A stretch of 64,000 nt of DNA from Alphaproteobacteria bacterium (GTDB lineage: Bacteria > Pseudomonadota > Alphaproteobacteria > CAAGCB01 > CAG-977). The first letter of the stretch is position 1; each line of letters opens with the position of its first letter. Positions 3,771-61,522 of this stretch are shown one piece after another. The notes beneath the pieces are model-generated. The model was given only the letters and a program-made list of their open reading frames with translations. It was not told the DNA's origin and did no database searches. The DNA is taken from assembly GCA_024413465.1 (NCBI GenBank), contig JAKSVU010000002.1:75063-139062 (forward strand). The letters are read 5' to 3'. The position numbers and the translations under genes are program-made.

Positions 3771-3807
3771 AAGGGGAGTCTGAAATTACAGATTCCCCTT
3801 CTTTTTT
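3771..3807 (+). terminator. Rho-independent terminator
   Basis: Hairpin aaggggagtctg/cagattcccctt followed by the T-run cttttttg. Confidence 0.6.
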
Positions 3808-3947
3808 GAAATGGAAATTTTTCCCTTGATGTTTTTTGATTGATTTTCTAAAAAAAGACAATTTTATTGATAAAAATAAAAAAAATACTTTGACGAAAGG
3901 CTCCTTTTTGGTGTTTACTTGCCATAATAAAAATAGGGAAAGTTTGA

Positions 3948-4190: not shown

Positions 4191-4196
4191 AATTTT

Positions 4197-5087
4197 ATGG
4201 TAGATTTAGTTAGAGAATTAAAAGAAACTGCAAAAGCAACCAGAAATACGATAGATCGTTTGTTAAAAGTTCCAAATGGAATGGAAAAGCGCGTTGTTGA
4301 AGCAATGAGATATTCTGTTTTGGCTGGTGGGAAGGCTTTGCGTCCGTTTATGGTTCTTGAAAGTGCAAAATTGTTTGACGTTGAACAAGAACGCGCTTTG
4401 CGTGTAGCTGCAGCTTTGGAAATGGTTCATTGCTATTCTTTGATTCATGATGATTTACCAGCAATGGATAATGATGATATGCGTCGTGGTCAACCTACTT
4501 GTCATAAACAATTTGATGAAGCTACTGCTATTTTAGCGGGAGATGGTTTGTTGACACGTGCTTTTGGTGTCATTTCAAGTGATGAATGTTTATTTGAACC
4601 TCAAATTAGATGTAAATTAATTCACCGTTTGGCAAAAGCTGCCGGAATGACCGGTATGATTGGTGGCCAAATGATGGATATTTTGGCAGAAACAGAAGAA
4701 GAAATGAAATTGCCAGATGTTATTAGATTACAAGAATTAAAGACAGGTTGTTTGTTCTCTTTTGCTTGTGAATCTGGTGCTGTCATGGGCAAAGGATCTT
4801 TGGAACAACAACAAAAATTGCGTGATTATGCTCGTCACTTTGGATTAGCTTTCCAAATTGCTGACGATATTTTGGATGTTGAAGGCGATGCAAACGTTGT
4901 TGGAAAGGCAGTTCGTAAAGATTTGGATGCTCATAAGGCAACATTTATCTCCTTGTTAGGTTTAGAAAAAGCAAAAGAACAAGCAAGATTGTTATCTCAG
5001 CAAGCTGTAGATAGCCTAGCTGGTTTTGATGGTCGTGCAGACAATTTGCGTGAATTAGCACGTTATATTGTGGATCGTAAATCATGA
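4197..5087 (+). CDS. ispA: farnesyl/geranyl diphosphate synthase
   Basis: Both aspartate-rich motifs are present (LIHDDLPAMDNDDMRRG and FQIADDILD). Confidence 0.9.
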   Translation: MVDLVRELKETAKATRNTIDRLLKVPNGMEKRVVEAMRYSVLAGGKALRPFMVLESAKLFDVEQERALRVAAALEMVHCYSLIHDDLPAMDNDDMRRGQPTCHKQFDEATAILAGDGLLTRAFGVISSDECLFEPQIRCKLIHRLAKAAGMTGMIGGQMMDILAETEEEMKLPDVIRLQELKTGCLFSFACESGAVMGKGSLEQQQKLRDYARHFGLAFQIADDILDVEGDANVVGKAVRKDLDAHKATFISLLGLEKAKEQARLLSQQAVDSLAGFDGRADNLRELARYIVDRKS

Positions 5088-7395: not shown

Positions 7396-7496
7396 TTAAG
7401 GGCAAAATATGCCTAGTTTGATGTGATATTAACTTTTTTTTAAATGAATCAAGATAAGCTGACTGTATATCTATGGATGACAGAAGGAATCAGGTT

Positions 7497-16590: not shown

Positions 16591-16688
16591 AAATATGGCA
16601 ATTAATCTGTTTTTTTATCAACTATTTCTTGATATCTGTCAGTTTTACATATAAATATAATGTAAGTTTTTTAACCTAGGTGGATAAA

Positions 16689-31789: not shown

Positions 31790-31808
31790 AATATTCGGAG
31801 ATTAATGT

Positions 31809-32753
31809 ATGGATAAAGTTGCAGTTCTTATTCCTTGTTATAATGAAGTTCTTACAATTGAAAAAGTTGTTCGTGATTTTAAGGCAGCTTTGCCTGAAGC
31901 CGTAATTTACGTATACGACAATAATTCAACCGATAATACTGCAAAAGTGGCAGAAAAAGCAGGTGCAATTGTTCGATATGAACATCAACAAGGAAAGGGA
32001 AATGTTATTCGCCGTATGTTTGCAGAAATCGATGCTCAATGTTATTTGATGGTTGATGGCGATGATACGTATCCAGCAGAAGCTGCAAAAGAAATGGTCG
32101 AAAAGGTATTGAATGATAAATCTGATATGGTTGTTGGAGATAGGTTGTCTTCAACATATTTCGAAGAAAATAAGAGACCATTTCACAATATTGGAAATAC
32201 CTTAGTTCGCGCTAGCATTAATACTCTATTCAAAAATAATATCAAAGATATTATGACTGGATATAGGGCCTTTAGTTATAGATTTGTAAAAACATTTCCA
32301 GTCTTATCGAAAGGCTTTGAAATCGAAACAGAAATGACTATCCACGCTATTGATAAAAATATGTTTGTTGAAAATGTGGTTATTAATTATCGTGATCGCC
32401 CAGAGGGAAGTGAGTCTAAATTAAATACGTATACTGACGGTTTTAAAGTTTTGAAAACAATTGCACGATTATTTTCAACGTATCGTCCTATGAAGTATTT
32501 TAGTGGTTTGTCTGCCTTGTTGTTATTGATAGCGACTGGATTTTTTGTTCCAGTCTTGATTGAGTATATTAAAACAGGATTAGTTCCGAATTTTCCAACC
32601 TTGATTGTTTGTGGTTTTGTTGTTATTGCTGCAATTCAATCTTTTTTTGCTGGATTGATTTTGCATAATAATTATCAAAAAAATCGTCAAGATTTTGAAA
32701 TGAATCTATATAGAGTATCATCGGAAGAAAAAGAAAAGTTAGGTAAAATCTAA
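31809..32753 (+). CDS. GT2 family glycosyltransferase (polyprenyl-phosphate sugar synthase-like) with C-terminal TM helices
   Basis: LIPCYNE...YDNNSTDNT...DGDD pattern of the GT-A fold plus two C-terminal TM segments. Confidence 0.8.
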   Translation: MDKVAVLIPCYNEVLTIEKVVRDFKAALPEAVIYVYDNNSTDNTAKVAEKAGAIVRYEHQQGKGNVIRRMFAEIDAQCYLMVDGDDTYPAEAAKEMVEKVLNDKSDMVVGDRLSSTYFEENKRPFHNIGNTLVRASINTLFKNNIKDIMTGYRAFSYRFVKTFPVLSKGFEIETEMTIHAIDKNMFVENVVINYRDRPEGSESKLNTYTDGFKVLKTIARLFSTYRPMKYFSGLSALLLLIATGFFVPVLIEYIKTGLVPNFPTLIVCGFVVIAAIQSFFAGLILHNNYQKNRQDFEMNLYRVSSEEKEKLGKI

Positions 32754-34232
32754 GTGAAGAAACAGTTATATTTATTAAAAAATATCATATTGAATATATT
32801 CAATCATATAAATCAACATCCGATTTATGCATTTATATCCATTTTTATAGTGTTGTTTTTTGTTACTTTTTATAAGTTTATGAATAAACATTTTACAGGT
32901 TTTACTCCTGAAGAGATTCTTTTTTTCCTTCAAACTCCGTGGACAGGTGTTGATGGTAATATGCTTTTAAAGTTTATAAAAAATTGCCTAGCAACTCCAT
33001 TACTTATCTCGTTCATCCTGTGTAATTTAAAAAGAATAAAATTGAATGTTAACTTTAAATCTTACAAATTTGTTGTAAAAAATTTGAATTTTATTTTATT
33101 TGTTTTTGCCTGGATTTGTATTTCTAAAGGGCTACTAACAAATAAAGATTTAAAAAACTTTTTAGATTTTTTTAACGAAGAATATTCAACTTTTTATGAA
33201 GAAAATTATATTTCAGTTTCAAAAGATGATTTAAAAATAGAGAATAAAAAAAATTTAATTTTTATTATTGTGGAAAGTTTGGAACAAACTTTTTCTGATT
33301 CTGAAGTATATGGAAAAAATTTAATACCTAATTTATCTAAATTAGATGGAATAAAATTTTCAAATTTTGAAAATGGGTATGCTACCGATTATACAGCAGG
33401 GATGATTATAGGTTCTTTTACAGGTTTGCCTCCATATCTTTCTTTGCGAGATTTAAATTATTATGGTCATTTGCAAACGCCATATCCTGCGATACTTTCT
33501 TTAGGGCGAGTGTTGAAAAATAATGGTTATCATACATCTTATATTTTGGGAAGTAAGGCTGAATTCGCAGGAACAAATGAGTTTTTATTTACTCATGGAA
33601 TTGATGAGATGATAGATAGAGGGGATATAGAGAAAGAGTTTCCAAATTTAAAAATAGCAGGGAAATGGGGGTATGGAGATTCAGATGTTTTTTCTGTTGC
33701 TCAGTCGAAATTAATAGAGAGTGTTGCTGACGGAAAAAAGAATTTTTTTATGATGATTTCTACAATAGATACACATGGCAATTATAAGCCTTCAGTCCCA
33801 ATAAATAAGTATGAAAATAAATATGAAAATGGAATCTACAATGCAGATGCAAGTATAGCGAACTTTATCAATTGGGTAAAAGAACAAAGTTTTTACAAGG
33901 ATACTGTAATTGTTGTTGTTGGTGATCATTTGAGAATGGGGAGGGATATTAAATATCCGACATATAGAACGATATTTAATTTATTTATGAATACAGAAAA
34001 GTCTTCTGTAAATATAAATAGAAAATTTTCCCAAATAGACTTGGGGCCAACAATATTGGAAGCTGTAGGAATAAAAATTAAAAACGATGCCTTAGGTTTG
34101 GGGAGATCTGTTTTTTCTGATGAGAAAACATTGTTGGAAAAATATGATACTAAAGATCTTTTTGATTTGATGAAAAAAAAGAGCAAATTTCTTAAAAATT
34201 TATGGTATGGCCCAACAAATAGTTCAGATTGA
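32754..34232 (+). CDS. membrane-anchored sulfatase-family transferase (LTA synthase/phosphoglycerol- or phosphoethanolamine-transferase-like)
   Basis: Five N-terminal TM helices followed by a sulfatase domain (IVESLEQT, GYATDY, VVVGDHL). The GTG start abuts the upstream stop. Markedly AT-rich. Confidence 0.7.
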   Translation: MKKQLYLLKNIILNIFNHINQHPIYAFISIFIVLFFVTFYKFMNKHFTGFTPEEILFFLQTPWTGVDGNMLLKFIKNCLATPLLISFILCNLKRIKLNVNFKSYKFVVKNLNFILFVFAWICISKGLLTNKDLKNFLDFFNEEYSTFYEENYISVSKDDLKIENKKNLIFIIVESLEQTFSDSEVYGKNLIPNLSKLDGIKFSNFENGYATDYTAGMIIGSFTGLPPYLSLRDLNYYGHLQTPYPAILSLGRVLKNNGYHTSYILGSKAEFAGTNEFLFTHGIDEMIDRGDIEKEFPNLKIAGKWGYGDSDVFSVAQSKLIESVADGKKNFFMMISTIDTHGNYKPSVPINKYENKYENGIYNADASIANFINWVKEQSFYKDTVIVVVGDHLRMGRDIKYPTYRTIFNLFMNTEKSSVNINRKFSQIDLGPTILEAVGIKIKNDALGLGRSVFSDEKTLLEKYDTKDLFDLMKKKSKFLKNLWYGPTNSSD

Positions 34233-34335
34233 TAATAATTTAAATTGATTTAAAAGATGCAGAACAATGGTTTTCAATTTAAATAATAAATCCAACGGTT
34301 GCCGTTTTTATGTATTGTTTTATAATGTCTTTTTT

Positions 34336-34827
34336 TTAAATAAATAGCACAATAAAATACATAATAATAGTCGCGTATAATCCAGCAAAAACGTCGTCAG
34401 TCATGACACCCCAAGCATTTAGAACTTTTTCATCAAAATATTTGACTAATCCCATTTTCTTGATGTCAAATAATCTGAATAATCCAAAGCCAACTAAATA
34501 AAGCCACCAATGTTCCAAATTGCCTTGTAATTTGTTACCGATTAATAAAAAAGCGAGTGTTTGGCCGACAACTTCATCAATAACAATCAATGAAGGATCA
34601 TGTTCTGTATATTTTAAAACTTCAACAGAAGCCAGAGTGCCCAATAAAAATGTTATTGTTGCAAAAATTACGATACCTAGCCATCCATAGTGATAGACAA
34701 TAAAAGCAACAGCGGGGATTGTTACAAGAGATCCCGCAGTACCACTAGCTTTTGGACAAAAACCAACTCCAAAAACAGAACAGATGGTGTAACAAATAAA
34801 TTTATAAAGTTTGCTTAAATTATTCAT
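34336..34827 (-). CDS. pgpA: phosphatidylglycerophosphatase A
   Basis: Alignable to the E. coli PgpA core (IDEVVGQ..., FRLFDIKK..., MTDDVFAG). Confidence 0.8.
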   Translation of the reverse strand: MNNLSKLYKFICYTICSVFGVGFCPKASGTAGSLVTIPAVAFIVYHYGWLGIVIFATITFLLGTLASVEVLKYTEHDPSLIVIDEVVGQTLAFLLIGNKLQGNLEHWWLYLVGFGLFRLFDIKKMGLVKYFDEKVLNAWGVMTDDVFAGLYATIIMYFIVLFI

Positions 34828-37864: not shown

Positions 37865-39202
37865 TTATCTACTAATCTGTTTGGATTGTGCAACCAACAT
37901 TGTAACTGAAGAATTGCTTTTAGATTTTTGTTCAGCTAAATTATCGGAAGCTTTCAAATTTAATTTTTTTATTCCTTGTTGAACAGATTTTATCATGTCA
38001 TTTGAAAGAGGAATATCAACAGTTGACGTATATAATTTTGCAGAATCAACTTTTAAACGATCTGAAATAGATTTTGGTAATTCGACTTTATCAACAATTT
38101 CAGGATTAAATCCCATACGAATTTTTTTTGCCATGAACAAATAAAGTTTTTCATCTTGAAGTGTTTGTTCTGCCTGAGGATTTTTTTCTCCTTTAATAGC
38201 GGATTGATTTATTTGTTCTACGGCATCTATTGTTTTCAAGATAGAATAATAGATAGGCTTGTCATTCGTAGCAAAAGAACACTTTTTACTGATATCTTGG
38301 CGTGTTTCTGTAATGTATTTATCCGCATAAAAATGATCATTTTTGTTTTTCAAATCTCGTAAAGGCATTTGAGCAACAGTATCGTCGTTATCTTGTCCAT
38401 AACAAACAGCCCCAGCATTATAAATTTCTAAAAATGCTTGAGTGAGATTGTGAATTTGTTTTGCTTTTGGTGTTAAAACGAATTGTTCGAAATCGGGAAC
38501 TTTATCTCCGCCACAGAATGCTTTGATATCTTTTGGTGTGCCATGAACAAGAGGACCTTTTTCATACGAATTTTGACCTAAACAACTGATAACACTTTCA
38601 ACGTCATACCCATTTTCATAGGCTGCTGTAATTCGTTCATCATCATACCAACCACGATAAGCCCCAGCTACACCGTCCTTTTCCCAACCATCTGCAATTT
38701 GAGTATACGTTCCTGCAAAAGCATCACGGGGAGCTGTGTCACCAAGCTCTGCCCATTCATTACAAGCTTTATAAGCTTGAGATTGAGCATCAGCTTCTGT
38801 TGCACGATAAATCATCTGATTTGTTTCATAATCTAAATGTTGGCTTTCATATTCACCACGACCTGCATGGTCTTGCCACAAATGGCGAGCTTCATGAACC
38901 AGACAAGACCGTAATTTGTCTATTCCACATTTTTTATTTAGCGTAATAATGTTTTGGCTTGGTGTATAGCAACCAACAGATTTTCCTAAATCATCAGCCA
39001 ATTTAAAAGGAGTTTCATGTTTTTTCATTTCATCCAAAGCTTCACGACCTGTTGGAATTTTATTCAAGGATTGAAGAATTTGTTCAACCATTAAATAGTC
39101 GCTTTGTTTGCAAATGACGGTTATGCCTTCAATTTCCCATTCGTGTGGACGTTCTTTTGTCTGAAAATCACTTTGTAAAAATATATCGTTAAAGGCACCC
39201 AT
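37865..39202 (-). CDS. HExxHxxQD zincin-like (DUF4157-like) protein, paralog 1 (445 aa)
   Basis: GCYTPSQNIITLNKKCGIDKLRSCLVHEARHLWQD. No signal peptide is evident. It lies 9 bp downstream of paralog 2 on the same strand. Confidence 0.55.
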   Translation of the reverse strand: MGAFNDIFLQSDFQTKERPHEWEIEGITVICKQSDYLMVEQILQSLNKIPTGREALDEMKKHETPFKLADDLGKSVGCYTPSQNIITLNKKCGIDKLRSCLVHEARHLWQDHAGRGEYESQHLDYETNQMIYRATEADAQSQAYKACNEWAELGDTAPRDAFAGTYTQIADGWEKDGVAGAYRGWYDDERITAAYENGYDVESVISCLGQNSYEKGPLVHGTPKDIKAFCGGDKVPDFEQFVLTPKAKQIHNLTQAFLEIYNAGAVCYGQDNDDTVAQMPLRDLKNKNDHFYADKYITETRQDISKKCSFATNDKPIYYSILKTIDAVEQINQSAIKGEKNPQAEQTLQDEKLYLFMAKKIRMGFNPEIVDKVELPKSISDRLKVDSAKLYTSTVDIPLSNDMIKSVQQGIKKLNLKASDNLAEQKSKSNSSVTMLVAQSKQISR

Positions 39203-39211
39203 TTTAATACC

Positions 39212-40315
39212 TTATCTGTTGTTTAACTTGTTTTGTAAAGCTTGTTGCATTGCTACGGATTTTTTTGAATCTCTCGTTGTTTTAGGGGCAGATCTAGATC
39301 CGGCACATATCATTGCAGAAGGATCATTTTCTATATTATCAAAAGTTTTTTTGTTTTCAGTCGAATACATTTTCATATAAGACTTGTCTTCTTTTGAAAA
39401 CAAGAAATGAGAACGGAAATTTTTCTCAATCATTTTAATTGATTCAAAACCAGCAGGAGAAAGTGATAGAGCTTCTGGAGAAGTCAAATAATCAGCATCA
39501 ATTTTTTTATTTAATCCTGGTGTTATGAAAATTTTATCTAACACGTCTTGGTTTGATATTTGCCCACGCAAAGAATCAGATTGAGTAAAATTTTGCTCTC
39601 TACCTTTTAAACCATACTTAATCGCATAAATATGATCTTTTTCATAAGATTGTTGATAGTGAGGATAGTTATACCATTCTTTGAAAGCTTTCTCACTTGC
39701 TTTATCCAAATCTCCAGATTCACTCATTTCTTTATCAAAAACTTGATACATTGGGAATTGAGCAACATGGGACAAAACTTCAGGATATTTATCTTTTATT
39801 TGATAAGCAAAACGAGCTTCTTCAGTCCAAGCTGCAGCTTCACAAGCACGATTAAATTTGAATTGGTCTGCAATATTTAATGAAGATGAATCACTTAATA
39901 ATTGATTTGAATCTGTATCTTGAACAGCATGAACCATTTCATGAAATGCAGTCGCAGCCATTCCTGCTATACTAGAATGTTGGCAAGGACATAACATAAT
40001 TCTTTTATTTCCACCAGACATTGATCCATCAGCATCACCACCATAAGCATTAAACGTAAATTTAAAGCCGGCAGCAGCAACTCTATCAATCAAATCTTTG
40101 CCTGCAGGAACGGAAGAAATAACATCAAATACCTGTTTTAATTGTTCTTTTTCAACTTCTTGAGGATCGCGAACATTTCTAACAGTTCTAGAAACATAAC
40201 CTGCCGTCAAAACGTTTTCAAAAGCAACCTTTAAAGTTCCTTCCATATCTTGACGATTAGGAACAGGTTGTTCGACTTCTTTTTTCTTTCCGAATATATC
40301 TGACAAGAAAGACAT
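39212..40315 (-). CDS. HExxHxxQD zincin-like (DUF4157-like) protein, paralog 2 (367 aa)
   Basis: GGNKRIMLCPCQHSSIAGMAATAFHEMVHAVQD. The RBS is AAGGA. Confidence 0.55.
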   Translation of the reverse strand: MSFLSDIFGKKKEVEQPVPNRQDMEGTLKVAFENVLTAGYVSRTVRNVRDPQEVEKEQLKQVFDVISSVPAGKDLIDRVAAAGFKFTFNAYGGDADGSMSGGNKRIMLCPCQHSSIAGMAATAFHEMVHAVQDTDSNQLLSDSSSLNIADQFKFNRACEAAAWTEEARFAYQIKDKYPEVLSHVAQFPMYQVFDKEMSESGDLDKASEKAFKEWYNYPHYQQSYEKDHIYAIKYGLKGREQNFTQSDSLRGQISNQDVLDKIFITPGLNKKIDADYLTSPEALSLSPAGFESIKMIEKNFRSHFLFSKEDKSYMKMYSTENKKTFDNIENDPSAMICAGSRSAPKTTRDSKKSVAMQQALQNKLNNR

Positions 40316-42146: not shown

Positions 42147-42192
42147 CAGAAAAATTAGAATGGTAAAATTTACAGAGGTATATAACATTATG

Positions 42193-43962
42193 TTCAAAAA
42201 GTTAAAGCAAAAAATTCTAAGTTTACCGATGTTTGTGAACTATCGCAAGATGTGGCCATACGTTAAACCATATTCTTTTCGCGCTATTTGTGCGGTATTG
42301 GTGACTTTGCCAATTGGTTCATTTGATGCTTTGACAGCTTGGATTTTAAAACCTTATATGGATGTTGTTTTGGTTGAAAAACAGGTAGCTGCAGCGTCTT
42401 TGATGCCATTGGTTATTGTGGCAGGCAGCTTTTTACAAAGTTTTTGCAACTATGCAGCAACATACTTGAATACTTGGGTTGGTCAAAAAATTACAATCAA
42501 GCTGAAAGGTGATTTGTATCATAAATTGTTGGAAAAGGAAGCAAACTATTTTGATCATACTTCCTCTGGCGACATTATTATGAATTTTTCAAAATGTGCA
42601 GAAACAGCTTGTAGTGGATTGTTGGCAAACGTAAAATTGTTCACAACACGTATCTTTTCATCTATTTCTTTGATTGGTGTTTTGTTTTGGAATTCTTGGC
42701 AATTGTCTATTGTTGCTTTGCTTTTTATGTTTGGAGCATTATTGCCATTAACAAAAGTGCGTAAGAAGATAAAATCAATTATGTCAAAACAAATTGGTGG
42801 AATGGCAGCAATAACAACCCATTATAATGAAACGTTTGCAGGAAACCGTATTATTGCTTCGTATAATTTGCATGAATATCAAGAAAAGAAATTTATGAAT
42901 GATCTGACTGGATTGTTCAAAGTTTCTATTAAGATGGTGCAAAAAACAGGAATGTTGTCCCCGATGATTCACTTTATTATTTCTTTGGGGATTGCTGGGG
43001 CAATTTGGTTGGGAAGTTATTTGATTGTTACTCATCAAATCAGTAGTGGTAACTTCGTTTCCTTTATTGCTGCTTTGTTGATGTTATATGGCCCAATCAA
43101 AGGAATTGGAAATACGTTCACCTCTGTTCAAATGTCTTTCATGATGATGGATCAAGTTTTTGCAACTTTAGAAAGTATTCCAACTATTCGCAACGTTGAT
43201 AATCCAGTTCATATTGATGGAGTTCATAAAGATATCGTTTATGATCACGTCAATTTTGAATATATTCCAGGTAAGCCAGTATTAAAAGATATCAATGCCA
43301 AAATAGAAATTGGTAAAATGTATGCGTTTGTTGGTAATTCTGGTGGTGGAAAGACAACGTTTGTCAATTTAATACCTCGTTTTTATGATATTAAGGGTGG
43401 AAGTATTTTAATTGATGGCGTATCTGTTAAAAATATAGATTTACATGATTTAAGAGAAAATATAGCGATTGTGTTCCAGGATAATTTCTTGTTCAATGGA
43501 ACGATCAGAGAAAACATATTATTGGGCAAAAAAGATTACAAAGAAGAAGATTTACAGAAAGCGATTGAATCAGCTTGCTTGACTGATTTTATCAAAACTT
43601 TGGATAAAGGGTTAGATACTGAAATCGGGGAAAGAGGAGTTTTGTTGTCTGGAGGACAAAAACAACGAGTGGCTATCGCAAGAGCGTTTATGAAAAATGC
43701 ACCGATTGTTATTTTGGATGAAGCAACGTCTGCTTTGGATAATAAGTCAGAAGCGATTGTACAACAAGCTATTGATAATTTGATGAAAGACAGAACTGTT
43801 TTAGTGATTGCGCACAGATTATCTACCGTTAAAAATGCTGATAAGATTTTTGTGATTAATGAAGGAAATATTGTTGAAGAAGGAACTCACGAAGAGTTGA
43901 TAGCATTAAAAGGTGAATATGCAGCTTTGTATGAAATGCAATTTAAGACAAAGAAAAATTAA
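42193..43962 (+). CDS. ABC exporter, fused permease/ATPase (second MsbA-like paralog)
   Basis: Six TM helices plus an NBD (GNSGGGKTT, LSGGQKQRVAIARA, ILDEATSALD). ATG 42193 (MFKKLKQ) is preferred over 42160. Confidence 0.8.
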   Translation, partial: FKKLKQKILSLPMFVNYRKMWPYVKPYSFRAICAVLVTLPIGSFDALTAWILKPYMDVVLVEKQVAAASLMPLVIVAGSFLQSFCNYAATYLNTWVGQKITIKLKGDLYHKLLEKEANYFDHTSSGDIIMNFSKCAETACSGLLANVKLFTTRIFSSISLIGVLFWNSWQLSIVALLFMFGALLPLTKVRKKIKSIMSKQIGGMAAITTHYNETFAGNRIIASYNLHEYQEKKFMNDLTGLFKVSIKMVQKTGMLSPMIHFIISLGIAGAIWLGSYLIVTHQISSGNFVSFIAALLMLYGPIKGIGNTFTSVQMSFMMMDQVFATLESIPTIRNVDNPVHIDGVHKDIVYDHVNFEYIPGKPVLKDINAKIEIGKMYAFVGNSGGGKTTFVNLIPRFYDIKGGSILIDGVSVKNIDLHDLRENIAIVFQDNFLFNGTIRENILLGKKDYKEEDLQKAIESACLTDFIKTLDKGLDTEIGERGVLLSGGQKQRVAIARAFMKNAPIVILDEATSALDNKSEAIVQQAIDNLMKDRTVLVIAHRLSTVKNADKIFVINEGNIVEEGTHEELIALKGEYAALYEMQFKTKKN

Positions 43963-48385: not shown

Positions 48386-48390
48386 TTTTG

Positions 48391-49758
48391 ATGAAACTAT
48401 ATGTATCAAATACGATGACACGCACCAAAGAAGAATTTATTCCTTTGGATGAAAAACACGTTCGTATGTATGTGTGTGGTCCTACGGTTTATGATAGAGC
48501 TCACATTGGAAATGCACGCCCGATTATCGTGTTTGATACGTTGTATCGTTTGTTAAAATATCTTTATCCAAAGGTAACTTACGTTCGTAATATTACTGAC
48601 GTTGATGATAAAATTATCAAAAAATCTCAGGAAAGTGGTGAACCGATTAATGTGATTACTGAAAAAACAACTCGTTTTTTCCATGAAGATATTTCACACT
48701 TAAACGTTTTAAATCCTAATGTTGAACCAAAAGCGACTGCTCATATTCAAGATATGATTGCTTTAGTTCAGAGATTGGTTGATAACGGGCATGCTTACGT
48801 TGCAGAAGGACACGTTTTGTTTAGCGTTGAAAGTATGCCAACTTATGGAAGATTATCCAAAAAATCTATGAAAGAATTGCGGGCAGGAGCAAGAGTTGAA
48901 GTAGCTCCATATAAAAAAGATCCTGCAGATTTTGTTTTATGGAAACCATCTGATGCAAATCAACCAGGGTGGGATAGTCCATGGGGATTTGGTCGTCCAG
49001 GTTGGCATTTGGAATGTTCTGCAATGAGCTCCAAATATTTAGGCGAAACGTTTGATATTCATGGTGGTGGTTTGGATTTAATTTTCCCTCATCACGAAAA
49101 TGAAATTGCTCAATCTTGTTGTGCTTTCGGTCATGATTTTTATGCAAAATATTGGATGCATAATGGCCATTTGATGGTAAATGGTGAAAAAATGTCTAAA
49201 TCATTGGGGAATTTTTTCACTATTCGTGAAATTTTAGATCAGGTTCCTGGTGAGGCTTTCCGTTTATATACATTGGGGACTCATTATCATCAACCGTTGA
49301 ACTGGATGGCTGACGGATTAAAGCAAGCAAAAGGAACAATGGATCGTTTCTATACGGCTTTAAGAAATACACCAGATGTTGATTTGTCCGATGCTAAACC
49401 TGCAGAAGAAGTGATTGAAGCTTTGTGTGATGATTTGAATACACCAAAGGCAATTTCTGTTTTACATGCTTTGGCAACCCAATTGAATAAAGATAAATCT
49501 GCAGAAACGAAAAAAACGTTATTGGCTTCTGCTCAACTGATGGGATTATTATATCAATCTGCAGAAGAATGGTTTAAAAATCAATCTGCAGAAGAAGGTT
49601 CTTTATCTGAAGCCGATATTTTAGCTTTAATTCAGAAACGTGCAGATGCTCGTAAGGCAAAAGATTTTGCAACGGCTGATGCTGTTCGTAAAGAATTGGC
49701 TGATAAAGGTGTTGTGATTGAAGATACGCCTAATGGGACTCAGTGGAAACGCGTATAA
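48391..49758 (+). CDS. cysS: cysteine--tRNA ligase
   Basis: HIGH motif ([16 protein letters not shown]), KMSKS motif and a zinc-binding Cys pattern. Confidence 0.9.
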
Positions 49759-49780
49759 TTAAATTGATTTTATAAGGCAT

Positions 49781-50195
49781 CTGTCGTGTGCTTCCGGTAC
49801 TTGAATGCTCACGTACAATATGTACGTTCCGCTTCTGCGTTTCGGTTCACACTTCCATCTGCACTTCTAAAATCAATTTTGGGAAATCTGTCGTGTGCTT
49901 CCGGTACTCGAATGCTCACGTACAGTATGTACGCTCCGCTTCTGCGTTTCGGTTCATACTTCCATCTGTACTTCTAAAATCAATTTTTGGAAATCTGTCG
50001 TGTGCTTCCGATACTCGAATGCTCACGTACAGTATGTACGCTCCGCTTCTGCGTTTCGGTTCATACTTCCATCTGCACTTCTAAAATCAATTTTTGGAAA
50101 TCTGTCGTGTGCTTCCGGTACTCGAATGCTCACGTACGGTATGTACGCTCCGCTTCTGCGTTTCGGTTCACACTTCCATCTGTACTTCTAAAATC
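49781..50195. repeat. tandem repeat, 107-bp unit x ~3.9 copies (units begin 49781, 49888, 49995, 50102), each with an internal hairpin
   Basis: Exact 107-nt periodicity of ctgtcgtgtgcttccggtac...; copies are >90% identical. Each unit carries the hairpin acgtaca-ata-tgtacgt (gta loop in copies 2-4). Confidence 0.9.
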
Positions 50196-55210: not shown

Positions 55211-55855
55211 ATGAAAGTTTTTCTTTTTTGTAAAAAAGTTGTATATTTAATTTTAGGTCTGTTATTTTGTGGTATAGGGACAGCTTTCGCTGTTCGGGCT
55301 AATCAAGGAGTTAGTCCCATATCCGCTCCGCCTGTTGTTATGGCAGATATGTTTTCAGGAATTAAATATTTTGGTGGTCCCTTAGCTTTTTGGACCGTTG
55401 TATATAATGGTGTTTTCATATTTTTACAAATGTTTTTGTTAGGAAGAAAATTTACACTTAAATATTGGTTGGAATTCCCAGCATTGTTCATTTTCGGATA
55501 TTTTATTAGTGCAGGGATGTGGTTAACACAATCATATGTCCCCACATCTTATATCCTTTGCTTTGTTGAAATGTTGCTAGGCTGCGTGGCTATGGGATTG
55601 GGAATTGCATTAGAATTACATGCAGATCTCACCTTTTTATCAGGGGACGGCTTTGTAAGTGTTGTTTCGAATAAATACCATTTGAATTTAGGCAAAGTTA
55701 AAATTATGTTTGACGTTGGTTGCGTCATTATTGCCGTTGCAATCAGTTATTTTGGTTTAAGTGGAAAAATTATTGGTATTCGTGAAGGAACGATAGTGGC
55801 AGCATTGCTTGTTGGTCCGATTATTAATATGTTTTTGAAATTCTTAAAAAAATGA
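55211..55855 (+). CDS. integral membrane protein (unknown function)
   Basis: RBS AAGGAG and five or six TM helices. Confidence 0.5.
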   Translation: MKVFLFCKKVVYLILGLLFCGIGTAFAVRANQGVSPISAPPVVMADMFSGIKYFGGPLAFWTVVYNGVFIFLQMFLLGRKFTLKYWLEFPALFIFGYFISAGMWLTQSYVPTSYILCFVEMLLGCVAMGLGIALELHADLTFLSGDGFVSVVSNKYHLNLGKVKIMFDVGCVIIAVAISYFGLSGKIIGIREGTIVAALLVGPIINMFLKFLKK

Positions 55856-55868
55856 GTCATCACATCTA

Positions 55869-57299
55869 ATGATCAAAAGAAATCTGTTTGTTTTCTGTTG
55901 TATCTATTGTCTATCATGGTCATTGTTTCCATTGATTAGAAATTGTTTGCCTATGGATACAATGGAAGCTGTTTACTGGGGAAATTATTTAGAATGGGGA
56001 AATTATAAACATCCTCCTTTTTCTGGATTTGTTGCAAAATTTTTCTTTGATTTATTAGGAAAAACAGATTTTTCTTTATATTTTTTAAGTCAAGTTTGTA
56101 TTTCAATAGCTCTTGTTTATATTTATCGTTTAGTTAAGGTTATGGTAAATGAAAGAAGAGCCGTACAAGCTGTTTATCTGTCAACGGGTATTTTATATTT
56201 TAATATATTGGCTGTTGAATTTAATACGAATGTGTTATCAGTTCCGTTGTGGGCGATGAATGCTTTTTATTTTTATCAAGCAGTTCGTAAAAATAAAATG
56301 AAACATTGGATTGTTTTGGGTATTACTGCAGGACTGAATGTTTTAACAAAATATACAGGCGGTGTTTTGTTAATTGGAATGGGCGTATATATTCTTGCAA
56401 CTCAATCAGGACGAAAACAGCTAAAACACATTGGACCATATTTAACTTGTATAAGTTGTATTGCTGTTCTTATTCCACATATATTGTGGTTATTTCAATA
56501 TGATTTTTTGCCTTTGAGATATATTGCGGGGCGTGGTGGACATGAAAATTCGTTTTTATTAGTTCATTTTGTTCAGCCTATAAAATTTGTTTTGTCTCAG
56601 ATAGCAAATGTTGTTCCAGTTATATTGATTTACTTTATTCTGCGTTTTAAATCAAAAGACGTTTTAAAATTGTCGGGTGTACAGGTTCAATTTATAAATC
56701 TTGTTTTGATTTTCCCGATTGTCTTTATGGCGGTATTGGGTGGAATATTAGGCGTTTCAATGCGATCAATGTGGGGGACAGCAATGATGTTTCCTGTTGG
56801 GATATATTTTGTTTTATTATTGCCTATTCGTGAAGAAGTAAGACTAGAAAAGGTAATGTATTCTCTACTTGCTTTATTGCTGATTGTATTCTTTTTATCA
56901 AATGAAGTAAAAGTTCGTGAAAAAGTAAAATTAGATCCCAGAAAATTTGCACAAGATATAACTGAAAAATGGCAGAGTGAATTCCATCGTCCTTTAAAAT
57001 ATGTTGGAGGAGACGTTTTCTACATTGCTCCTGTATCATTGTATAGTTCTGATCATCCAACTCCAATCGGTGATGAATTAGAATTAAATCCCTGGTTAGA
57101 TCAACAAGATATTCTTCATTATGGTGGAGTGGTTGTAAAAGGATGTAAATCAAAAAAATGTGATGGTGGATGTGAATCATTTTCACCAAAACAAAATTAT
57201 TCTGATACAATGGTATATCAAGTTGATTTAAAAACATTGTTTGGAAAAACAAAAACAATAAAAGTTCGTTATTGCTTTATGAAGCCTCAAGGAGATTAA
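55869..57299 (+). CDS. ArnT/PMT-like polytopic membrane glycosyltransferase (GT83/GT39-like; LgmB-like)
   Basis: ~11 TM helices with an N-terminal loop pattern (YWGNY...KHPPFS). It is the first gene of a four-gene co-directional cluster. Confidence 0.7.
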   Translation: MIKRNLFVFCCIYCLSWSLFPLIRNCLPMDTMEAVYWGNYLEWGNYKHPPFSGFVAKFFFDLLGKTDFSLYFLSQVCISIALVYIYRLVKVMVNERRAVQAVYLSTGILYFNILAVEFNTNVLSVPLWAMNAFYFYQAVRKNKMKHWIVLGITAGLNVLTKYTGGVLLIGMGVYILATQSGRKQLKHIGPYLTCISCIAVLIPHILWLFQYDFLPLRYIAGRGGHENSFLLVHFVQPIKFVLSQIANVVPVILIYFILRFKSKDVLKLSGVQVQFINLVLIFPIVFMAVLGGILGVSMRSMWGTAMMFPVGIYFVLLLPIREEVRLEKVMYSLLALLLIVFFLSNEVKVREKVKLDPRKFAQDITEKWQSEFHRPLKYVGGDVFYIAPVSLYSSDHPTPIGDELELNPWLDQQDILHYGGVVVKGCKSKKCDGGCESFSPKQNYSDTMVYQVDLKTLFGKTKTIKVRYCFMKPQGD

Positions 57300-57302
57300 A
57301 TT

Positions 57303-58355
57303 ATGTCAAAAAATCAGCATCAATTATTAAGCATAATTATTTCAGCTTTTAATGAAGAAGGAAATATTGACGCTTTATATGCAGAATTGAAAAAAGTTTT
57401 ACCAAACGTTGATGTGCCAAACATTGAGATAATTTTTGTAAATGATGGCTCTACAGATTCAACTGCTGAAAAAATTAAAAAATTACAAACAAAAGATAGT
57501 CGCGTCAAATTAGTTGATTTTAAACGTAATTTTGGTCATGAAATTGCTATGACAGCCGGAATGGAATATGCAAAAGGTGATGCTTGCATATTTATGGATT
57601 CAGATTTGCAACATCCACCTGTATTTATCAAGGAAATGGTAGATAAATGGAATAAAGGAGCAGATATTGTTTTAACACGTCGCATAGATAACGTGGCAAC
57701 AAGTAAACTTTACAAATTTATGTCTGCAGCATTTTATAAAATATTAAATTTATTATCTGATACAAAAATTCCTGAAAAAACACCAGATTTTCGTTTGTTA
57801 GATAAAAAGTATACGTCTTTTTTGAAGCAATTTAATGAAGGAGAACGATTATTCCGTGGATTGCTTAATTACATTATGCCAAATGAAGGTGTTGAATATA
57901 TTGAATTTTCAGCTCCGGAACGTTTTTCAGGAACGACGAAGTATTCGTTTGCTAAAAGTTTAGCTTTGGCTTTTTCAACTATCGTTCAATTTTCTGTAAA
58001 ACCGTTGCGTTTTTCAATATACTTGGGTGTATTAACAGCTACATTTTCATTGTTTATGGGCGCATATTTCTTCATTGAATATTTCTTTTTAAATCAACCA
58101 ACACCAGGTTTTGCAACTTTGATGACAATGATTGGTTTTTTGGGTGCAGTCCAATTGATTATGTTAGGAATAGTTGGTGAATATATTGGAAAAATTCATA
58201 TGGAAGTCAAAAGACGTCCATTGTTTATTGCTGATTATATTGAGGCTCAAAAAGTAGAAAAGGTTGCTAAAAAATCTTTTATGACAGAATTAACAAAAAA
58301 ATCTCAAATGAAAAAGAATATTCTAAAAACTAAGAAAAAGGTGGAACAAAAGTAA
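57303..58355 (+). CDS. GT2 polyprenyl-phosphate hexosamine synthase (ArnC/LgmA-like)
   Basis: LSIIISAFNEE...VNDGSTD...DSDLQHPP matches the ArnC/DPM1-type GT2, plus two C-terminal TM helices. Confidence 0.8.
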   Translation: MSKNQHQLLSIIISAFNEEGNIDALYAELKKVLPNVDVPNIEIIFVNDGSTDSTAEKIKKLQTKDSRVKLVDFKRNFGHEIAMTAGMEYAKGDACIFMDSDLQHPPVFIKEMVDKWNKGADIVLTRRIDNVATSKLYKFMSAAFYKILNLLSDTKIPEKTPDFRLLDKKYTSFLKQFNEGERLFRGLLNYIMPNEGVEYIEFSAPERFSGTTKYSFAKSLALAFSTIVQFSVKPLRFSIYLGVLTATFSLFMGAYFFIEYFFLNQPTPGFATLMTMIGFLGAVQLIMLGIVGEYIGKIHMEVKRRPLFIADYIEAQKVEKVAKKSFMTELTKKSQMKKNILKTKKKVEQK

Positions 58356-59174
58356 ATGGTGCAGTTCATTGTTAATGCAGATGATTTTGGTGCATCAAAA
58401 GGAATAAATAAGGCAATTGAAACAGCTTTTAAAGGCGGATGTTTAAATTCGACATCTTTGATGGTAACAATGCGTTATGTTTCAGAGGCAGTATCAATCG
58501 CTAAGGAAAATCCAGAATTAAAAGTTGGATTACACTTAAATCTAACAAATGAATATAGTGCTTGTAAGGCTGAGAAAATACCATTGTTAGTTAATCAAGA
58601 TGGAAAATTTAAAAATGGTTTTTTAAATTTGTTTATTTTGTCTTTGCTTCATCCTATTCAGTTTAGAAAACAGATTTTAAAAGAAACAATTGCTCAGGTT
58701 CTTTTATATAAAAAAACAGGATTAGAGTTTGCTCATATAGATTCACATCGTCATGTCCATCATATTCCAGCTATTTTCAAGATTGTTCGTAAAGTGGCTA
58801 AAAAATATAATATTGATCGTATTCGAGTTGTAAATGAACGCGTTTTTCATACGTATAAATGTAATAAAGATAGATCATTTTTATTCGATGGTGGGTTAAT
58901 TAAGTGGGCTGTTTTAAAATCAATGTATGTTTGGAATCATTATTTCCCAAATGTTTATTTTTATACTATTTTGTATACGGGGAAAATTTATAAAAGTAGA
59001 TTTGAAAATTTTAAAATGCCAGCAGGTTTTGAGGCATTAGAAATAGGAATCCATCCAGGAATGCCAGAATTAGATAAAGATGATCACGTCTTTGATGAAG
59101 CATTTTTATTGCCAGCAAGAACAAAAGAATTTGAAACAGTTTCCACAAAAAATTTGTTGGACGATGTTTTATGA
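58356..59174 (+). CDS. YdjC-family carbohydrate deacetylase (NaxD/LgmC-like)
   Basis: N-terminal IVNADDFGASKGINKAI...TSLM is the YdjC/ChbG signature. Confidence 0.7.
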   Translation: MVQFIVNADDFGASKGINKAIETAFKGGCLNSTSLMVTMRYVSEAVSIAKENPELKVGLHLNLTNEYSACKAEKIPLLVNQDGKFKNGFLNLFILSLLHPIQFRKQILKETIAQVLLYKKTGLEFAHIDSHRHVHHIPAIFKIVRKVAKKYNIDRIRVVNERVFHTYKCNKDRSFLFDGGLIKWAVLKSMYVWNHYFPNVYFYTILYTGKIYKSRFENFKMPAGFEALEIGIHPGMPELDKDDHVFDEAFLLPARTKEFETVSTKNLLDDVL

Positions 59175-59617
59175 GTTTCATTTGGCGTTTATATAAAAAA
59201 GTTGAAGATTTTTGGTTTACCTTTCCTGAAAAATTAAGATATTTATTGGTGGGTGGATTTAATACTGTTTTTGCATATGGCGTTTATCTGTTTTTTTTAC
59301 AAATATGTCATTTTTCTTATAATAGTTCTTTGTTTTTACAAAATTTTATTAGCATCAACGTTTCTATCTTTACGATGAGATATTTTGTGTTTCAAAGTCA
59401 TGGTCGGTTTTGGGCTGAATTTTTTAAAGCTTGGCAAGTTTATATTTTGATGTTGTTGTTAAATTGTGTGTCATTAAATGTGTTAGTTCAATGGTTGCAT
59501 TTACATCCAGCATTGGCACAGGGATTATATATTTTCTTTGGAACAATTATATCCTTTTTATTGCATAAATATTATTCTTTTAAAAAAAGAAATGCAGAGA
59601 ATTTTTCTAAAAAATAA
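59171..59617 (+). CDS. GtrA-like small membrane protein (putative polyprenyl-P-sugar flippase component)
   Basis: 148 aa with 4 TM helices and the N-terminal LRYLLVGGFNTVFAYGVY GtrA pattern. It overlaps the upstream gene. Confidence 0.7.
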   Translation: MSFIWRLYKKVEDFWFTFPEKLRYLLVGGFNTVFAYGVYLFFLQICHFSYNSSLFLQNFISINVSIFTMRYFVFQSHGRFWAEFFKAWQVYILMLLLNCVSLNVLVQWLHLHPALAQGLYIFFGTIISFLLHKYYSFKKRNAENFSKK

Positions 59618-59687: not shown

Positions 59688-60602
59688 ATGTGTTGCTGTG
59701 CGTTATGTAAAAATAAGTGGTTCGCACCAGTTTTGTGCGTGGTATCAATTTGTGCATGGTATTTTGTGAAAACATATAATCATATTGATATTTTTAGTAT
59801 TATGAACGTTGATCCCGTTGAAATGACGGGAACTGCAAAAACACCATTTATTTTTTCTATGTGTCTGTTGTTTACAGTAAATTTCATTGCTGTTCTATTC
59901 TATCTTTTTTATAGGTTAGCAAAAAAATTTGAAGGATCTATTTTATGTGGTCCTATTTTAGCAGTTACTGTATTGGCTTATTTATGCTTGATGGGAGGTT
60001 TGTTTTATCCAACTTCTTGTTGGGATTTTATGACACGCGAAGGTGGTCCTGTTGATATAACAACCTATACCTCTTATGTGGTCTTTTTCATAACAATGGT
60101 AAAAGTGCGTCAAGATTATACAGCAACGAAACAGGATAAAGTTCATTGGTGTTTATTCTCATTTTTTGCTTTAATTTGTTTGTTGCGAGAAATGGGAGCT
60201 CAACATTGGTTGCCAAGTAAGGATTCAACTTCATTCAAGATTAAATTTTTTACAAATCCAATGAATCCAATACATGAGAAGATAATTGCTGGAATAATTG
60301 TTTTGATAGTTGTAGCGGCTTGTTTATATGCTGCATATAAGTGGGCTATTCCGCTGGTAAAAGGTTTTTTTGTAAGGCGTTGGGGAGCGTGGCTTGTCGG
60401 TACAATGATAGGATGTGGTTTGCTCTGTAAAGTTTGTGACAGAATGAATGGCTTTTTAAAATCGATCGGATATGTTTGGGAAAGAAGACATTTTACTTAT
60501 GGACTGAATGCTGTTTTTGAAGAAGGTCTTGAAATCATGCTGCCAATTTTGGCAACGGTTGCTTTATTGGCTCATCACAAGAATAAAGATGCTTTTTACT
60601 AG
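59688..60602 (+). CDS. integral membrane protein (unknown function)
   Basis: RBS AGGAG and ~8 TM helices. Confidence 0.45.
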   Translation: MCCCALCKNKWFAPVLCVVSICAWYFVKTYNHIDIFSIMNVDPVEMTGTAKTPFIFSMCLLFTVNFIAVLFYLFYRLAKKFEGSILCGPILAVTVLAYLCLMGGLFYPTSCWDFMTREGGPVDITTYTSYVVFFITMVKVRQDYTATKQDKVHWCLFSFFALICLLREMGAQHWLPSKDSTSFKIKFFTNPMNPIHEKIIAGIIVLIVVAACLYAAYKWAIPLVKGFFVRRWGAWLVGTMIGCGLLCKVCDRMNGFLKSIGYVWERRHFTYGLNAVFEEGLEIMLPILATVALLAHHKNKDAFY

Positions 60603-61522
60603 AACTCGTCTCCCCAAGATGATTTTTTAGCAGATTTATAATTTTCTTTATTTGATTTTGTAATAATTCGGTTTTCTGTACCGGAATTTGTACAAAGGGA
60701 TAGGGTAATTTTCCCAGAAGAAATTTGAGGGTGTCTCAAAATTCTGTTTTGTGGTAATTCTACCGGTGTTTTTGAAAAAGCTAAAAAGGTAAATTTTTCA
60801 TCTTCAAAAGGTGCAGAAGCATTTTTCAATGCTTTGTGTAATTTTGATCTTTCAACGCGAACTGCAAAATGACACCACTCTGTACACAAATTTGTACGTG
60901 GACAGGGTGCTATCATATAAGCTCCGTTATTAATTAATTCTTGTCTGATTTTTTGCATCATTTCTGATGTCTTAGGCATCGCATTATCAATTAAAATTAA
61001 AGTAGATTTTGAGATATTCCAAAGTTTTAATGCGCTTTCAACGGGATTTGAAAGCTCGTTTAAAACATAAGCTGAGACAACTAAATCTGCAGTTTGATTA
61101 AATGTATCAGTTAATATATTTTTAGATGACCAATCACAAAATGGTGCTAATTTTTTGCCAATATCCGATTGTGTTTTTTGAGTTTCAAAGCTTGTTATTT
61201 GTGCTTGTTCAAAGAACTGATGTATAGCAATAGAAGTAGCTCCAGTTCCTGCCCCAAAATCAAAAATAGTCTTAATTTCCGTATTGATTTTTGGAGTTAC
61301 TACTTGAAATGATTTATAACAAGCTGAATAGGTTGCAGGCATACGACATAACGCATAAGTTAAAGATTGTTCGATTGTTCTTAAATCTTTATTTTTATCA
61401 TGAATGTATTTATTAGATAGGTCTGAAGCAGTTTGTTTTAATCCCCTCAAACCAGATAAATTATTATCTGATTTAAGGGTATAATATAAATTTTCAAGAT
61501 CCTGTTGAAATGGATAAATCAT
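60599..61522 (-). CDS. Rsm22-like class I SAM-dependent methyltransferase with C-terminal Cys cluster
   Basis: IFDFGAGTGATS SAM motif and CP..C..WCHF. It overlaps the pyrG stop (operon). Confidence 0.6.
   Translation of the reverse strand: MIYPFQQDLENLYYTLKSDNNLSGLRGLKQTASDLSNKYIHDKNKDLRTIEQSLTYALCRMPATYSACYKSFQVVTPKINTEIKTIFDFGAGTGATSIAIHQFFEQAQITSFETQKTQSDIGKKLAPFCDWSSKNILTDTFNQTADLVVSAYVLNELSNPVESALKLWNISKSTLILIDNAMPKTSEMMQKIRQELINNGAYMIAPCPRTNLCTEWCHFAVRVERSKLHKALKNASAPFEDEKFTFLAFSKTPVELPQNRILRHPQISSGKITLSLCTNSGTENRIITKSNKENYKSAKKSSWGDEF

Follow-up and report, generated by a model that had tools for sequence, protein, structure and literature searches.

Uncultured gut Alphaproteobacteria share a genuine, conserved cluster of four genes, which encode a polytopic GT-C glycosyltransferase, a GT2 glycosyltransferase, a YdjC-family deacetylase and a GtrA-family small membrane protein. 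On balance, we favour the reading that these genes form one operon, whose products use a polyprenyl-phosphate carrier to add a free-amine hexosamine to the cell envelope, most likely to LPS in its lipid A or inner-core region. In this proposal we infer the identity of the sugar, the order of the steps, the role of the flippase and the acceptor. The interpretation as a pathway of the Lgm, Flm or Arn type is partly supported, and to regard the cassette as a variant of the known hexosamine-modification pathways is plausible, though unproven. In its favour are the modelled fold of the GT-C, whose best solved match is the lipid A transferase ArnT, and the independent linkage of GT-C, GT2 and YdjC genes in Variovorax paradoxus.

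The four ORFs are co-directional on the + strand and span exactly positions 55869-59617 of the window, that is, of the whole 64,000-nt stretch of DNA that was analysed. The gene for the GT-C (476 amino acids (aa); 55869..57299; Pfam PMT_2, E 5e-37) is followed after 3 nt by that for a GT2 of the GtrB/CsbB/PgfS type (350 aa; 57303..58355; Pfam Glycos_transf_2, E 2e-34) and then, at 0-nt spacing, by that for the YdjC-family deacetylase (272 aa; 58356..59174; Pfam YdjC, E 3e-50), which overlaps by 4 nt (-4 nt spacing) with the gene for the GtrA-family protein (148 aa; 59171..59617; Pfam GtrA_DPMS_TM, E 4e-17). This spacing is co-transcription-like; a promoter and terminator scan gave no signal above shuffled expectation. 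The initial annotation had delimited the same four ORFs, with coordinates that match the ORF list exactly; its four family assignments are borne out by Pfam, and its membrane topologies agree with hydropathy for all four proteins. Downstream of the cassette lies a gene for a 304-aa membrane protein, which has no family match and is conserved solely in near-identical contigs; its single-sequence AF2 model (pLDDT 47) is useless.

Conservation was followed across 80 related loci, which are species-level representatives from uncultured gut and rumen Alphaproteobacteria. All four genes are found in identical order and on the same strand in 71 of them, and in 4 further loci the GT-C is missing solely owing to a contig end. 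The GT2 and YdjC genes are neighbours in 79/80 loci, and a GtrA homologue sits at the corresponding position in 75, being missing beside the cassette in the other 5. An arrangement of this kind is far beyond chance and, since the order is kept in 71/80 loci despite unrelated flanking genes, selection acts on the four-gene unit. Genes for a Pfam-less protein of ~1,050 aa and for an SPFH/NfeD pair flank the cassette most often, and no consistent LPS neighbour emerged when the flanks of the 80 loci were surveyed for LPS-gene enrichment. An LpxA-like gene and autotransporters are carried by related MAG loci. The host is a diderm and has LPS-type genes; the window contains genes for an autotransporter, a TolC-like OEP and a pair of MsbA-like transporters. 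Of the cassette's components, the GT-C is conserved least (median identity 33% vs 62% for the GT2), with only 30-40% identity among species whose GT2 proteins are 58-76% identical, and the acceptors could therefore vary.

The GT-C is polytopic by hydropathy, and its AF2 model (pLDDT 94.5) shows about 11 TM helices, with an alpha/beta domain at the C-terminus. In a Foldseek comparison with the PDB, the top match of this model is ArnT (5F15; TM 0.65, 11% identity, E 1e-5), and every other GT-C fold is at a TM of about 0.5 or below. The features of an ArnT-like GT-C_A fold are present, namely a polytopic protein that carries a conserved acidic motif in its first periplasmic loop and ends in a periplasmic domain. 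The first-periplasmic-loop motif, P-M-D30-T-M-E33 ... W37-G ... W-G-N-Y-K47-H48-P49-P50 (55956..56018, + strand), contains the residues D30, E33, W37 and P49, which are invariant in an alignment of 58 GT-C sequences, and K47 and H48, which are at least 90% conserved in the same alignment. In an hhalign alignment, KHPP is placed opposite FEKP of E. coli ArnT. By general knowledge of GT-C enzymes, this motif would hold putative catalytic acidic residues and a putative carrier-phosphate-binding Lys, and the protein is predicted to be a periplasmic-face transferase that moves a sugar from a polyprenyl-phosphate carrier to an envelope acceptor.

The initial annotation had called this protein ArnT-like, a label that stands for the fold but not for the sequence. 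No match to PF02366 was found in the GT-C, whereas E. coli ArnT scores 211 bits against this Pfam model, and at E <= 1 neither phmmer with the single GT-C sequence nor a 58-sequence GT-C profile recovered an ArnT chain from the PDB. With hhalign giving 37.6% probability for the pairing with E. coli ArnT, the sequence links sought by phmmer, PDB profile, hhalign and BLASTP are all negative or marginal, and membership of the ArnT family (GT83/PF02366) was rejected, so that the analogy to LgmB and FlmK is one of fold and context only. Judged by its sequence, the GT-C belongs instead to a large uncharacterised PMT_2 subfamily, with about 4,900 relatives at E < 1e-3 and the motif PxDxxE...WGxxKHPP, whose members are annotated merely as ‘glycosyltransferase family 39’. 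PMT_2 enzymes serve many kinds of acceptor. The gene context of distant GT-C homologues is mixed, many being stand-alone or paired just with a GT2. One distant relative has lipid A late-acyltransferase-like, KdsB-like and PAP2 genes at a distance of 2-5 kb, and another adjoins a PAP2 phosphatase on a Pantoea plasmid; these contexts, including the one near lipid A/Kdo genes, are suggestive only.

The GT2 has the architecture of a carrier-lipid GT2, composed of a cytoplasmic GT-A domain with D99-S-D101 and C-terminal TM helices at residues 239-257 and 273-291 (by hydropathy), and it ends in a Lys-rich tail. Its full-length matches in the PDB are Synechocystis GtrB (sll0501; 239 bits) and ArnC (103 bits), and among the NCBIfam models it scores 255.6 bits against PgfS, below the cut-off of 500, and 111.5 bits against ArnC. 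The earlier label ‘ArnC-like’ is generic, GtrB being much closer. The protein is predicted to be a polyprenyl-phosphate HexNAc synthase, the specificity for HexNAc being deduced from the neighbouring deacetylase gene; GtrB, its closest solved relative, makes Und-P-glucose and not the HexNAc-linked lipid.

The YdjC protein has no hydrophobic segment by hydropathy and can be aligned with 2I5I and 7VI8, two YdjC proteins of solved structure. Residues N7-A-D-D-F-G12, H60 and H127-x-D-x-H-R-H-x-H135 are invariant among 32 homologues, and the motif quoted in the initial annotation, IVNADDFGASKGIN...TSLM, is found at residues 5-36. As read from these sequence features, the protein is soluble and cytoplasmic with its catalytic and metal motifs intact, and the reaction predicted for it is the deacetylation of polyprenyl-P-HexNAc to polyprenyl-P-HexN. 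By hydropathy, the GtrA-like protein contains 3-4 hydrophobic segments; it may serve the lipid-linked sugar as a flippase or as an accessory subunit.

In the proposed model, the GtrB-type GT2 would use UDP-HexNAc and undecaprenyl phosphate (Und-P) on the cytoplasmic face of the membrane to produce Und-P-HexNAc, from which the soluble YdjC protein would strip the acetyl group to generate Und-P-HexN. The GtrA-family protein may then help the lipid-linked sugar to reach the periplasmic face, where the PMT_2 GT-C would move the HexN onto an acceptor located in the inner membrane's outer leaflet. On lipid A or the inner core, such a cationic sugar would offset the charge of phosphate or Kdo and, in the gut, raise resistance to cationic peptides of the host. 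The order of events suggested previously for the locus (polyprenyl-P-HexNAc synthesis, deacetylation, flipping and transfer) is consistent with the gene set.

The closest parallels come from systems that modify lipid A. The Bordetella lgm locus, according to its published description, likewise consists of four co-directional genes for a GT2, a polytopic GT-C, a deacetylase and a small membrane protein; it measures 3.49 kb in B. holmesii (PMC5454989), compared with 3.75 kb here, and a free-amine hexosamine is the predicted product of the present cassette as well. In Bordetella, lgmA, lgmB and lgmC are required for the addition of GlcN to lipid A and lgmD is dispensable (PMC4993483), which is paralleled by the missing GtrA gene at 5/80 related loci. 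The systems differ in that the transferase gene comes first in the cassette, a contrast with Bordetella already drawn in the initial annotation, and in that LgmB is called an ArnT ortholog in the literature while the GT-C described here has no sequence-level match to ArnT. The cassette here belongs to an uncultured alphaproteobacterium of gut type and has no BvgAS-type regulator close by. In Francisella and A. baumannii, a GT2 is described to produce Und-P-HexNAc, NaxD to convert it to Und-P-HexN and a GT-C to transfer the sugar to a lipid A phosphate (PMC11279074, PMC2233673), a sequence of steps like that proposed above; NaxD, itself a YdjC-family protein, deacetylates Und-P-GalNAc before the transfer to lipid A (PMC11279074). 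The Francisella genes for FlmF2, NaxD and FlmK are adjacent (FTN_0544-0546; PMC4688374), but no GtrA-type gene is described in this locus, and FlmK was identified as a homologue of PmrK/ArnT (PMC2233673), whereas the sequence of the GT-C does not mark it as an ArnT.

The enterobacterial Arn pathway shares the same general plan: a GT2 that has TM helices at its C-terminus places an N-acylated amino-sugar on Und-P, the sugar is de-acylated on the cytoplasmic face and flipped, and a GT-C finally transfers it to lipid A. This GT-C, ArnT, is the best solved fold match of the transferase described here, and ArnC is clearly homologous to the GT2 (103-111 bits). The Arn deformylase ArnD is, however, of the NodB type and not YdjC, its flippase ArnE/F is SMR-like and not GtrA, the genes for the sugar-nucleotide enzymes ArnA and ArnB are absent here, and E. 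coli ArnT belongs to PF02366 whereas the GT-C matches PMT_2 only. GtrA/GtrB/GtrC systems, which glucosylate O-antigen and so have glucose as their sugar, also combine a GtrA-family protein with a GtrB-type GT2 (239 bits) and a polytopic transferase, but to our knowledge they have no deacetylase and their GtrC proteins are not PMT_2 enzymes. Assignment of the cassette to a three-component system of the GtrABC type was rejected, its transferase being a PMT_2 protein and the YdjC deacetylase an integral and conserved part of it. An uncharacterised locus in the betaproteobacterium Variovorax paradoxus (CP063167, INQ48_32825-32840) has adjoining genes for a GT39/PMT_2 protein from the subfamily of the GT-C, a GT2 and a ChbG/HpnK-family deacetylase. 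Its GT39 is 24% identical to the GT-C over 425 aa (E 2e-26) with the motif PxDxxE...YKHPP common to both, and the two GT2 proteins are 32% identical; it differs in its divergent orientation, the absence of a GtrA gene, an attached ‘ester cyclase’ gene and a YdjC protein with weak similarity to that of the cassette (48 bits).

The carrier-lipid pathway may operate as proposed and yet serve another acceptor, such as O-antigen, capsule or exopolysaccharide, periplasmic glucans or a surface or periplasmic protein, a possibility that we take seriously without expecting it to be correct. The PMT_2 family is broad and the GT-C is not ArnT by sequence and diverges fast (30-40% identity where the GT2 has 58-76%); the nearest relatives of the GT2 are GtrB and PgfS, whose roles are in the glycosylation of O-antigen and of proteins; the flanks of the cassette in gut MAGs are not LPS-specific; and many distant GT-C relatives are stand-alone or paired only with a GT2. 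On the other hand, ArnT is the best fold match by a clear margin, some GT-C relatives lie near lipid A, Kdo or PAP2 genes and, as established knowledge has it, the characterised carrier-lipid HexNAc deacetylases of the YdjC family, the only ones that we know of, all feed lipid A modification. A related and similarly tentative proposal takes its start from the GT-C subfamily, which is tied to the HexNAc-deacetylation branch in the gut and rumen Alphaproteobacteria lineage and independently in Variovorax: the acceptor might be a protein, Kdo or core, or some further glycolipid of the outer membrane, and not a lipid A phosphate, which would amount to a new cationic-sugar modification of the envelope. 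In that case the cassette could be a constitutive defence of these commensals against antimicrobial peptides of the host, the role played by LpxF in Bacteroidetes.

The remaining explanations concern the sugar and the deacetylase. It is improbable that the GT2 resembles GtrB in producing Und-P-glucose, with the YdjC protein acting on a different acetylated substrate and the transferred product being no amino-sugar. This would accord with the 239-bit match to GtrB, an Und-P-Glc synthase, but the GT2 and YdjC genes are adjacent in the window, where their spacing is 0 nt, and also in 79/80 loci and again in Variovorax, which is hard to explain without a shared substrate. We give very little credence to a hopanoid side-chain pathway of the HpnI/HpnK type, in which the GT2 would add GlcNAc to bacteriohopanetetrol and the YdjC protein deacetylate it. 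HpnK (TIGR03473) is the top NCBIfam match of the YdjC protein, which aligns to HpnK-annotated proteins at about 100-106 bits, compared with 48 bits for the GT39-linked YdjC of Variovorax, and HpnK-annotated plasmid genes are among its top tblastn matches; the plasmid matches in Azospirillum and Methylobacterium have no GT-C or GT2 of the cassette type adjacent. The HpnK score of 159 bits is, however, under the curated cut-off (232.6). The GT2 matches HpnB only marginally (E 8e-4) and HpnI not at all, and it is built like GtrB, with two TM helices at its C-terminus; the GT-C transferase and GtrA protein have no place in the Hpn pathway. No shc or hpn genes were found in the window or beside the cassette in related loci. 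An HpnK identity of the YdjC protein was rejected on the cut-off and the absent hopanoid context, so that a hopanoid assignment of the GT2 and YdjC proteins, which the initial annotation had named among the findings that would overturn its reading, is not borne out. Least credible of all is a ChbG-like chitobiose deacetylase for sugar catabolism as a chance neighbour of glycosyltransferases: the score of 127.9 bits against the ChbG model (NF002559) lies under the cut-off of 227, and chance is at odds with the fused-like spacing and a four-gene order kept in 71/80 species. As no chb or PTS genes were found near the cassette, this identity was likewise rejected on cut-off and context.

If our preferred reading, a cationic hexosamine on LPS, is true, the cassette would be the first predicted envelope charge-modification system of uncultured low-GC Alphaproteobacteria from human and ruminant guts, and it could explain the tolerance of these bacteria to host defensins and polymyxin-type peptides. 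It could also explain how TLR4 sees their LPS. The initial annotation had expected TLR4 recognition to be dampened, which is wrong for Bordetella, where the GlcN modification raises human TLR4 and NF-kB activation (PMC11401268, PMC11895810, PMC4993483), an effect that runs opposite to the usual ‘stealth’ assumption. Finally, it would provide a function for a large subfamily of PMT_2 GT-C proteins now labelled just ‘glycosyltransferase family 39’.

The four genes at 55869-59617, all on the forward strand and found in the ORF list at exactly the coordinates claimed in the initial annotation, are tightly packed, with gaps of 3 nt and 0 nt followed by a 4-nt overlap. They encode a GT-C glycosyltransferase (476 aa; 55869-57299; Pfam PMT_2, E 5e-37), a GT2 enzyme (350 aa; 57303-58355; Glycos_transf_2, E 2e-34), a YdjC-family deacetylase (272 aa; 58356-59174; YdjC, E 3e-50) that contains the YdjC motif quoted in that annotation, and a GtrA-like protein (148 aa; 59171-59617; GtrA_DPMS_TM, E 4e-17). 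In a hydropathy scan the GT-C protein showed nine or more hydrophobic segments and the GtrA-like protein three to four; the YdjC protein had none, and GT2 had a pair of C-terminal helices (239-257 and 273-291). All four families are already named by standard annotation pipelines.

Across a lineage of uncultured gut bacteria, the whole cassette is conserved. Scanning one genome per species yielded 271 YdjC relatives, and the best 80 of these were examined further; nearly all come from metagenome-assembled genomes (MAGs) labelled ‘uncultured Alphaproteobacteria’, which were sampled from the rumen and from the guts of humans (Hadza, Nepal), deer, yak, sheep and horses. When the four proteins were searched against these 80 loci by tblastn, 71 carried the complete cassette with order and strand kept. 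The GT-C gene was missing in four loci, solely because the contig ends there, and the GtrA gene was missing from its usual position in five; in one locus (L082) an aldo-keto reductase gene follows YdjC where GtrA would stand. Median identity to the window proteins is 62% for GT2, 51% for YdjC, 48% for GtrA and 33% for GT-C. As the closest YdjC among the species representatives is only 59% identical, the window's own species is absent from them. The exact YdjC protein is recorded solely from assembly GCA_024500545.1, and contigs 98-99% identical to it were seen in two sequencing runs; the window may derive from a symbiont or contaminant within a large, possibly eukaryotic, assembly.

The flanks vary between lineages, and it is therefore the four genes that are conserved as a unit. 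In the window, a YitT/YczE-like (DUF6198) membrane protein gene (55211-55855) ends 13 nt upstream of the GT-C start and may thus be co-transcribed; it shows no linkage to the cassette in other species and is kept only in near-identical contigs. A predicted membrane protein of 304 aa (59688-60602, same strand) follows 70 nt downstream; it has no Pfam or NCBIfam match, its homologues are confined to near-identical contigs, and its single-sequence AF2 model was unusable (pLDDT 47). Beyond it lies an Rsm22-like methyltransferase gene on the reverse strand (60599-61522; Pfam ‘mitochondrial small ribosomal subunit Rsm22’, E 1e-50), the ends of which overlap the coordinates of the 304-aa ORF and of the CTP synthase gene. 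In 31 gut-MAG loci, a divergent gene directly upstream of the cassette encodes a Pfam-less, Lys/Ala/Glu-rich protein of ~1,050 aa (2279-5407 in locus L017), with a gene pair of the SPFH (stomatin-like) and NfeD-like types after it.

The GT-C transferase is the most divergent component. A full HMMER search returned ~4,900 relatives at E < 1e-3, few of which were found by a word-indexed search because the family diverges fast; in a 58-sequence alignment D30, E33, W37, P49, Y162, P203 and Y218 are invariant, and K47 and H48 nearly so. The description ‘ArnT-like’ holds at the level of fold: the AF2 model has high confidence (pLDDT 94.5) and its best solved match is ArnT (5F15; TM 0.65, 11% identity), with ALG9, STT3/PglB, PMT, Emb and Aft enzymes at TM of about 0.5 or less. 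It does not hold by sequence, as searches of the PDB with the sequence and with its profile gave no chain, not even ArnT, at E ≤ 1, and Pfam gave no PF02366 match; E. coli ArnT, by contrast, matches PF02366 at 211 bits and PMT_2 at just 37. Direct comparison with E. coli ArnT gave 37.6% probability over 173 columns in hhalign and a patch of just 67 residues in BLASTP. A fold match without a sequence match indicates that the protein is ArnT-like in fold, yet belongs to a separate, uncharacterised PMT_2 subfamily.

Elsewhere in the window, a 2,081-aa autotransporter (7473-13718), matched in Pfam solely by its C-terminal beta-domain, and an outer-membrane efflux protein resembling TolC (16680-18173) mark the organism as a diderm; taken with two MsbA-like ABC transporters (TIGR02203, 564 and 515 bits, slightly below the cut-off of 602), they show that it has an outer membrane and genes for LPS-type export. 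The higher-scoring transporter (29996-31789) opens a possible second envelope-modification module (29996-34827), in which it is followed by a GT2 that resembles polyprenyl-phosphate sugar synthases of the Dpm1/AglJ kind (31809-32753; 220 bits to AglJ), an OpgB/phosphoglycerol-transferase-like member of the sulfatase family (32754-34232) and, on the opposite strand, PgpA (34336-34827); the second MsbA-like paralogue lies at 42160-43962. Two tandem paralogues of 445 and 367 aa (37865-40315, reverse strand) belong to the putative metallopeptidase family DUF6782. An intergenic 107-bp tandem repeat (49779-50195; 3.9 copies, 96% matches), located after the cysteinyl-tRNA synthetase gene (48388-49758), accounts for three spurious entries in the ORF list, which overlap one another.

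The cassette probably specifies a carrier-lipid amino-sugar pathway. In the proposed model, GT2 would load N-acetylhexosamine (HexNAc) onto undecaprenyl phosphate at the cytoplasmic face, the soluble YdjC enzyme would remove the acetyl group from the lipid-linked sugar, the GtrA-family protein may assist its translocation, and the GT-C enzyme would pass hexosamine to an acceptor at the periplasmic face. Among solved proteins GT2 is closest to GtrB of Synechocystis (sll0501), which makes polyprenyl-phosphate glucose (239 bits, full length), against 103 bits for ArnC, and its NCBIfam scores (PgfS 255.6 bits, ArnC 111.5 bits) each fall under the equivalog cut-off, which makes it a GtrB/CsbB/PgfS-type carrier-lipid synthase; ‘ArnC-like’ is thus acceptable in a generic sense but should read GtrB-type. 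That the cassette supplies a glucose donor is improbable. In the YdjC protein, N7-A-D-D-F-G12, H60 and H127-x-D-x-H-R-H-x-H135 are invariant among 32 homologues and align with the motifs of solved YdjC proteins. A role in hopanoid modification, for which the initial annotation had named HpnI/HpnK assignment as the sign, is very unlikely, since the protein fails the HpnK model (159 bits versus a cut-off of 232.6), and chitobiose catabolism is unlikelier still, the ChbG model failing as well (127.9 versus 227). The gene content and the analogy to an amino-sugar pathway proposed initially were right. Published precedents come from Francisella, with NaxD, FlmF2 and FlmK, and from Bordetella, with LgmA-C (PMC11279074, PMC2233673, PMC4993483). 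In its enzymatic logic the cassette follows Lgm, Flm-NaxD and Arn, the last of which uses different protein families; its transferase, however, is drawn from a distinct, unstudied PMT_2 subfamily, and a GtrA protein forms part of it. The suggestion that such a modification dampens TLR4 recognition was mistaken for Bordetella, where modification with glucosamine increases the activation of human TLR4 and NF-kB (PMC11401268, PMC11895810).

As to the acceptor, we lean towards LPS, in lipid A or the inner core, and only tentatively towards a lipid A phosphate specifically; that the same pathway serves a different acceptor is the less likely, though main, alternative. Neighbourhood hints are mixed overall and favour LPS without proving it. 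In locus L095, PAP2 genes and genes resembling KdsB and the lipid A late acyltransferases stand 2-5 kb away from a GT-C relative. Another relative, carried by a Pantoea plasmid, has a PAP2 phosphatase and the Bor and Ail/Lom genes for serum resistance in its vicinity, and in one group of gut MAGs an LpxA-like gene occurs 3 kb downstream of the cassette. Autotransporters are common near the gut-MAG cassettes, but the most frequent neighbours there are not LPS genes.

Some other GT-C family members stand alone, in Proteus and in four further loci (L092, L093, L096 and L101), and some have a GT2 partner only (L094 and L097). In a plasmid collection, a Variovorax paradoxus GT39 protein proved related to the window GT-C (24% identity over 425 aa, E 2e-26) and shares its PxDxxE...YKHPP motif. 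In this cluster (L088; CP063167, 400914-405037) its gene lies beside, and divergent from, those for an ‘ester cyclase’, a deacetylase of the ChbG/HpnK family and a GT2 that is 32% identical to the window GT2. The GT-C subfamily is therefore coupled to GT2 and YdjC proteins in two proteobacterial classes, and V. paradoxus, a cultured betaproteobacterium with an as yet uncharacterised cluster, offers a tractable organism in which to probe its function.
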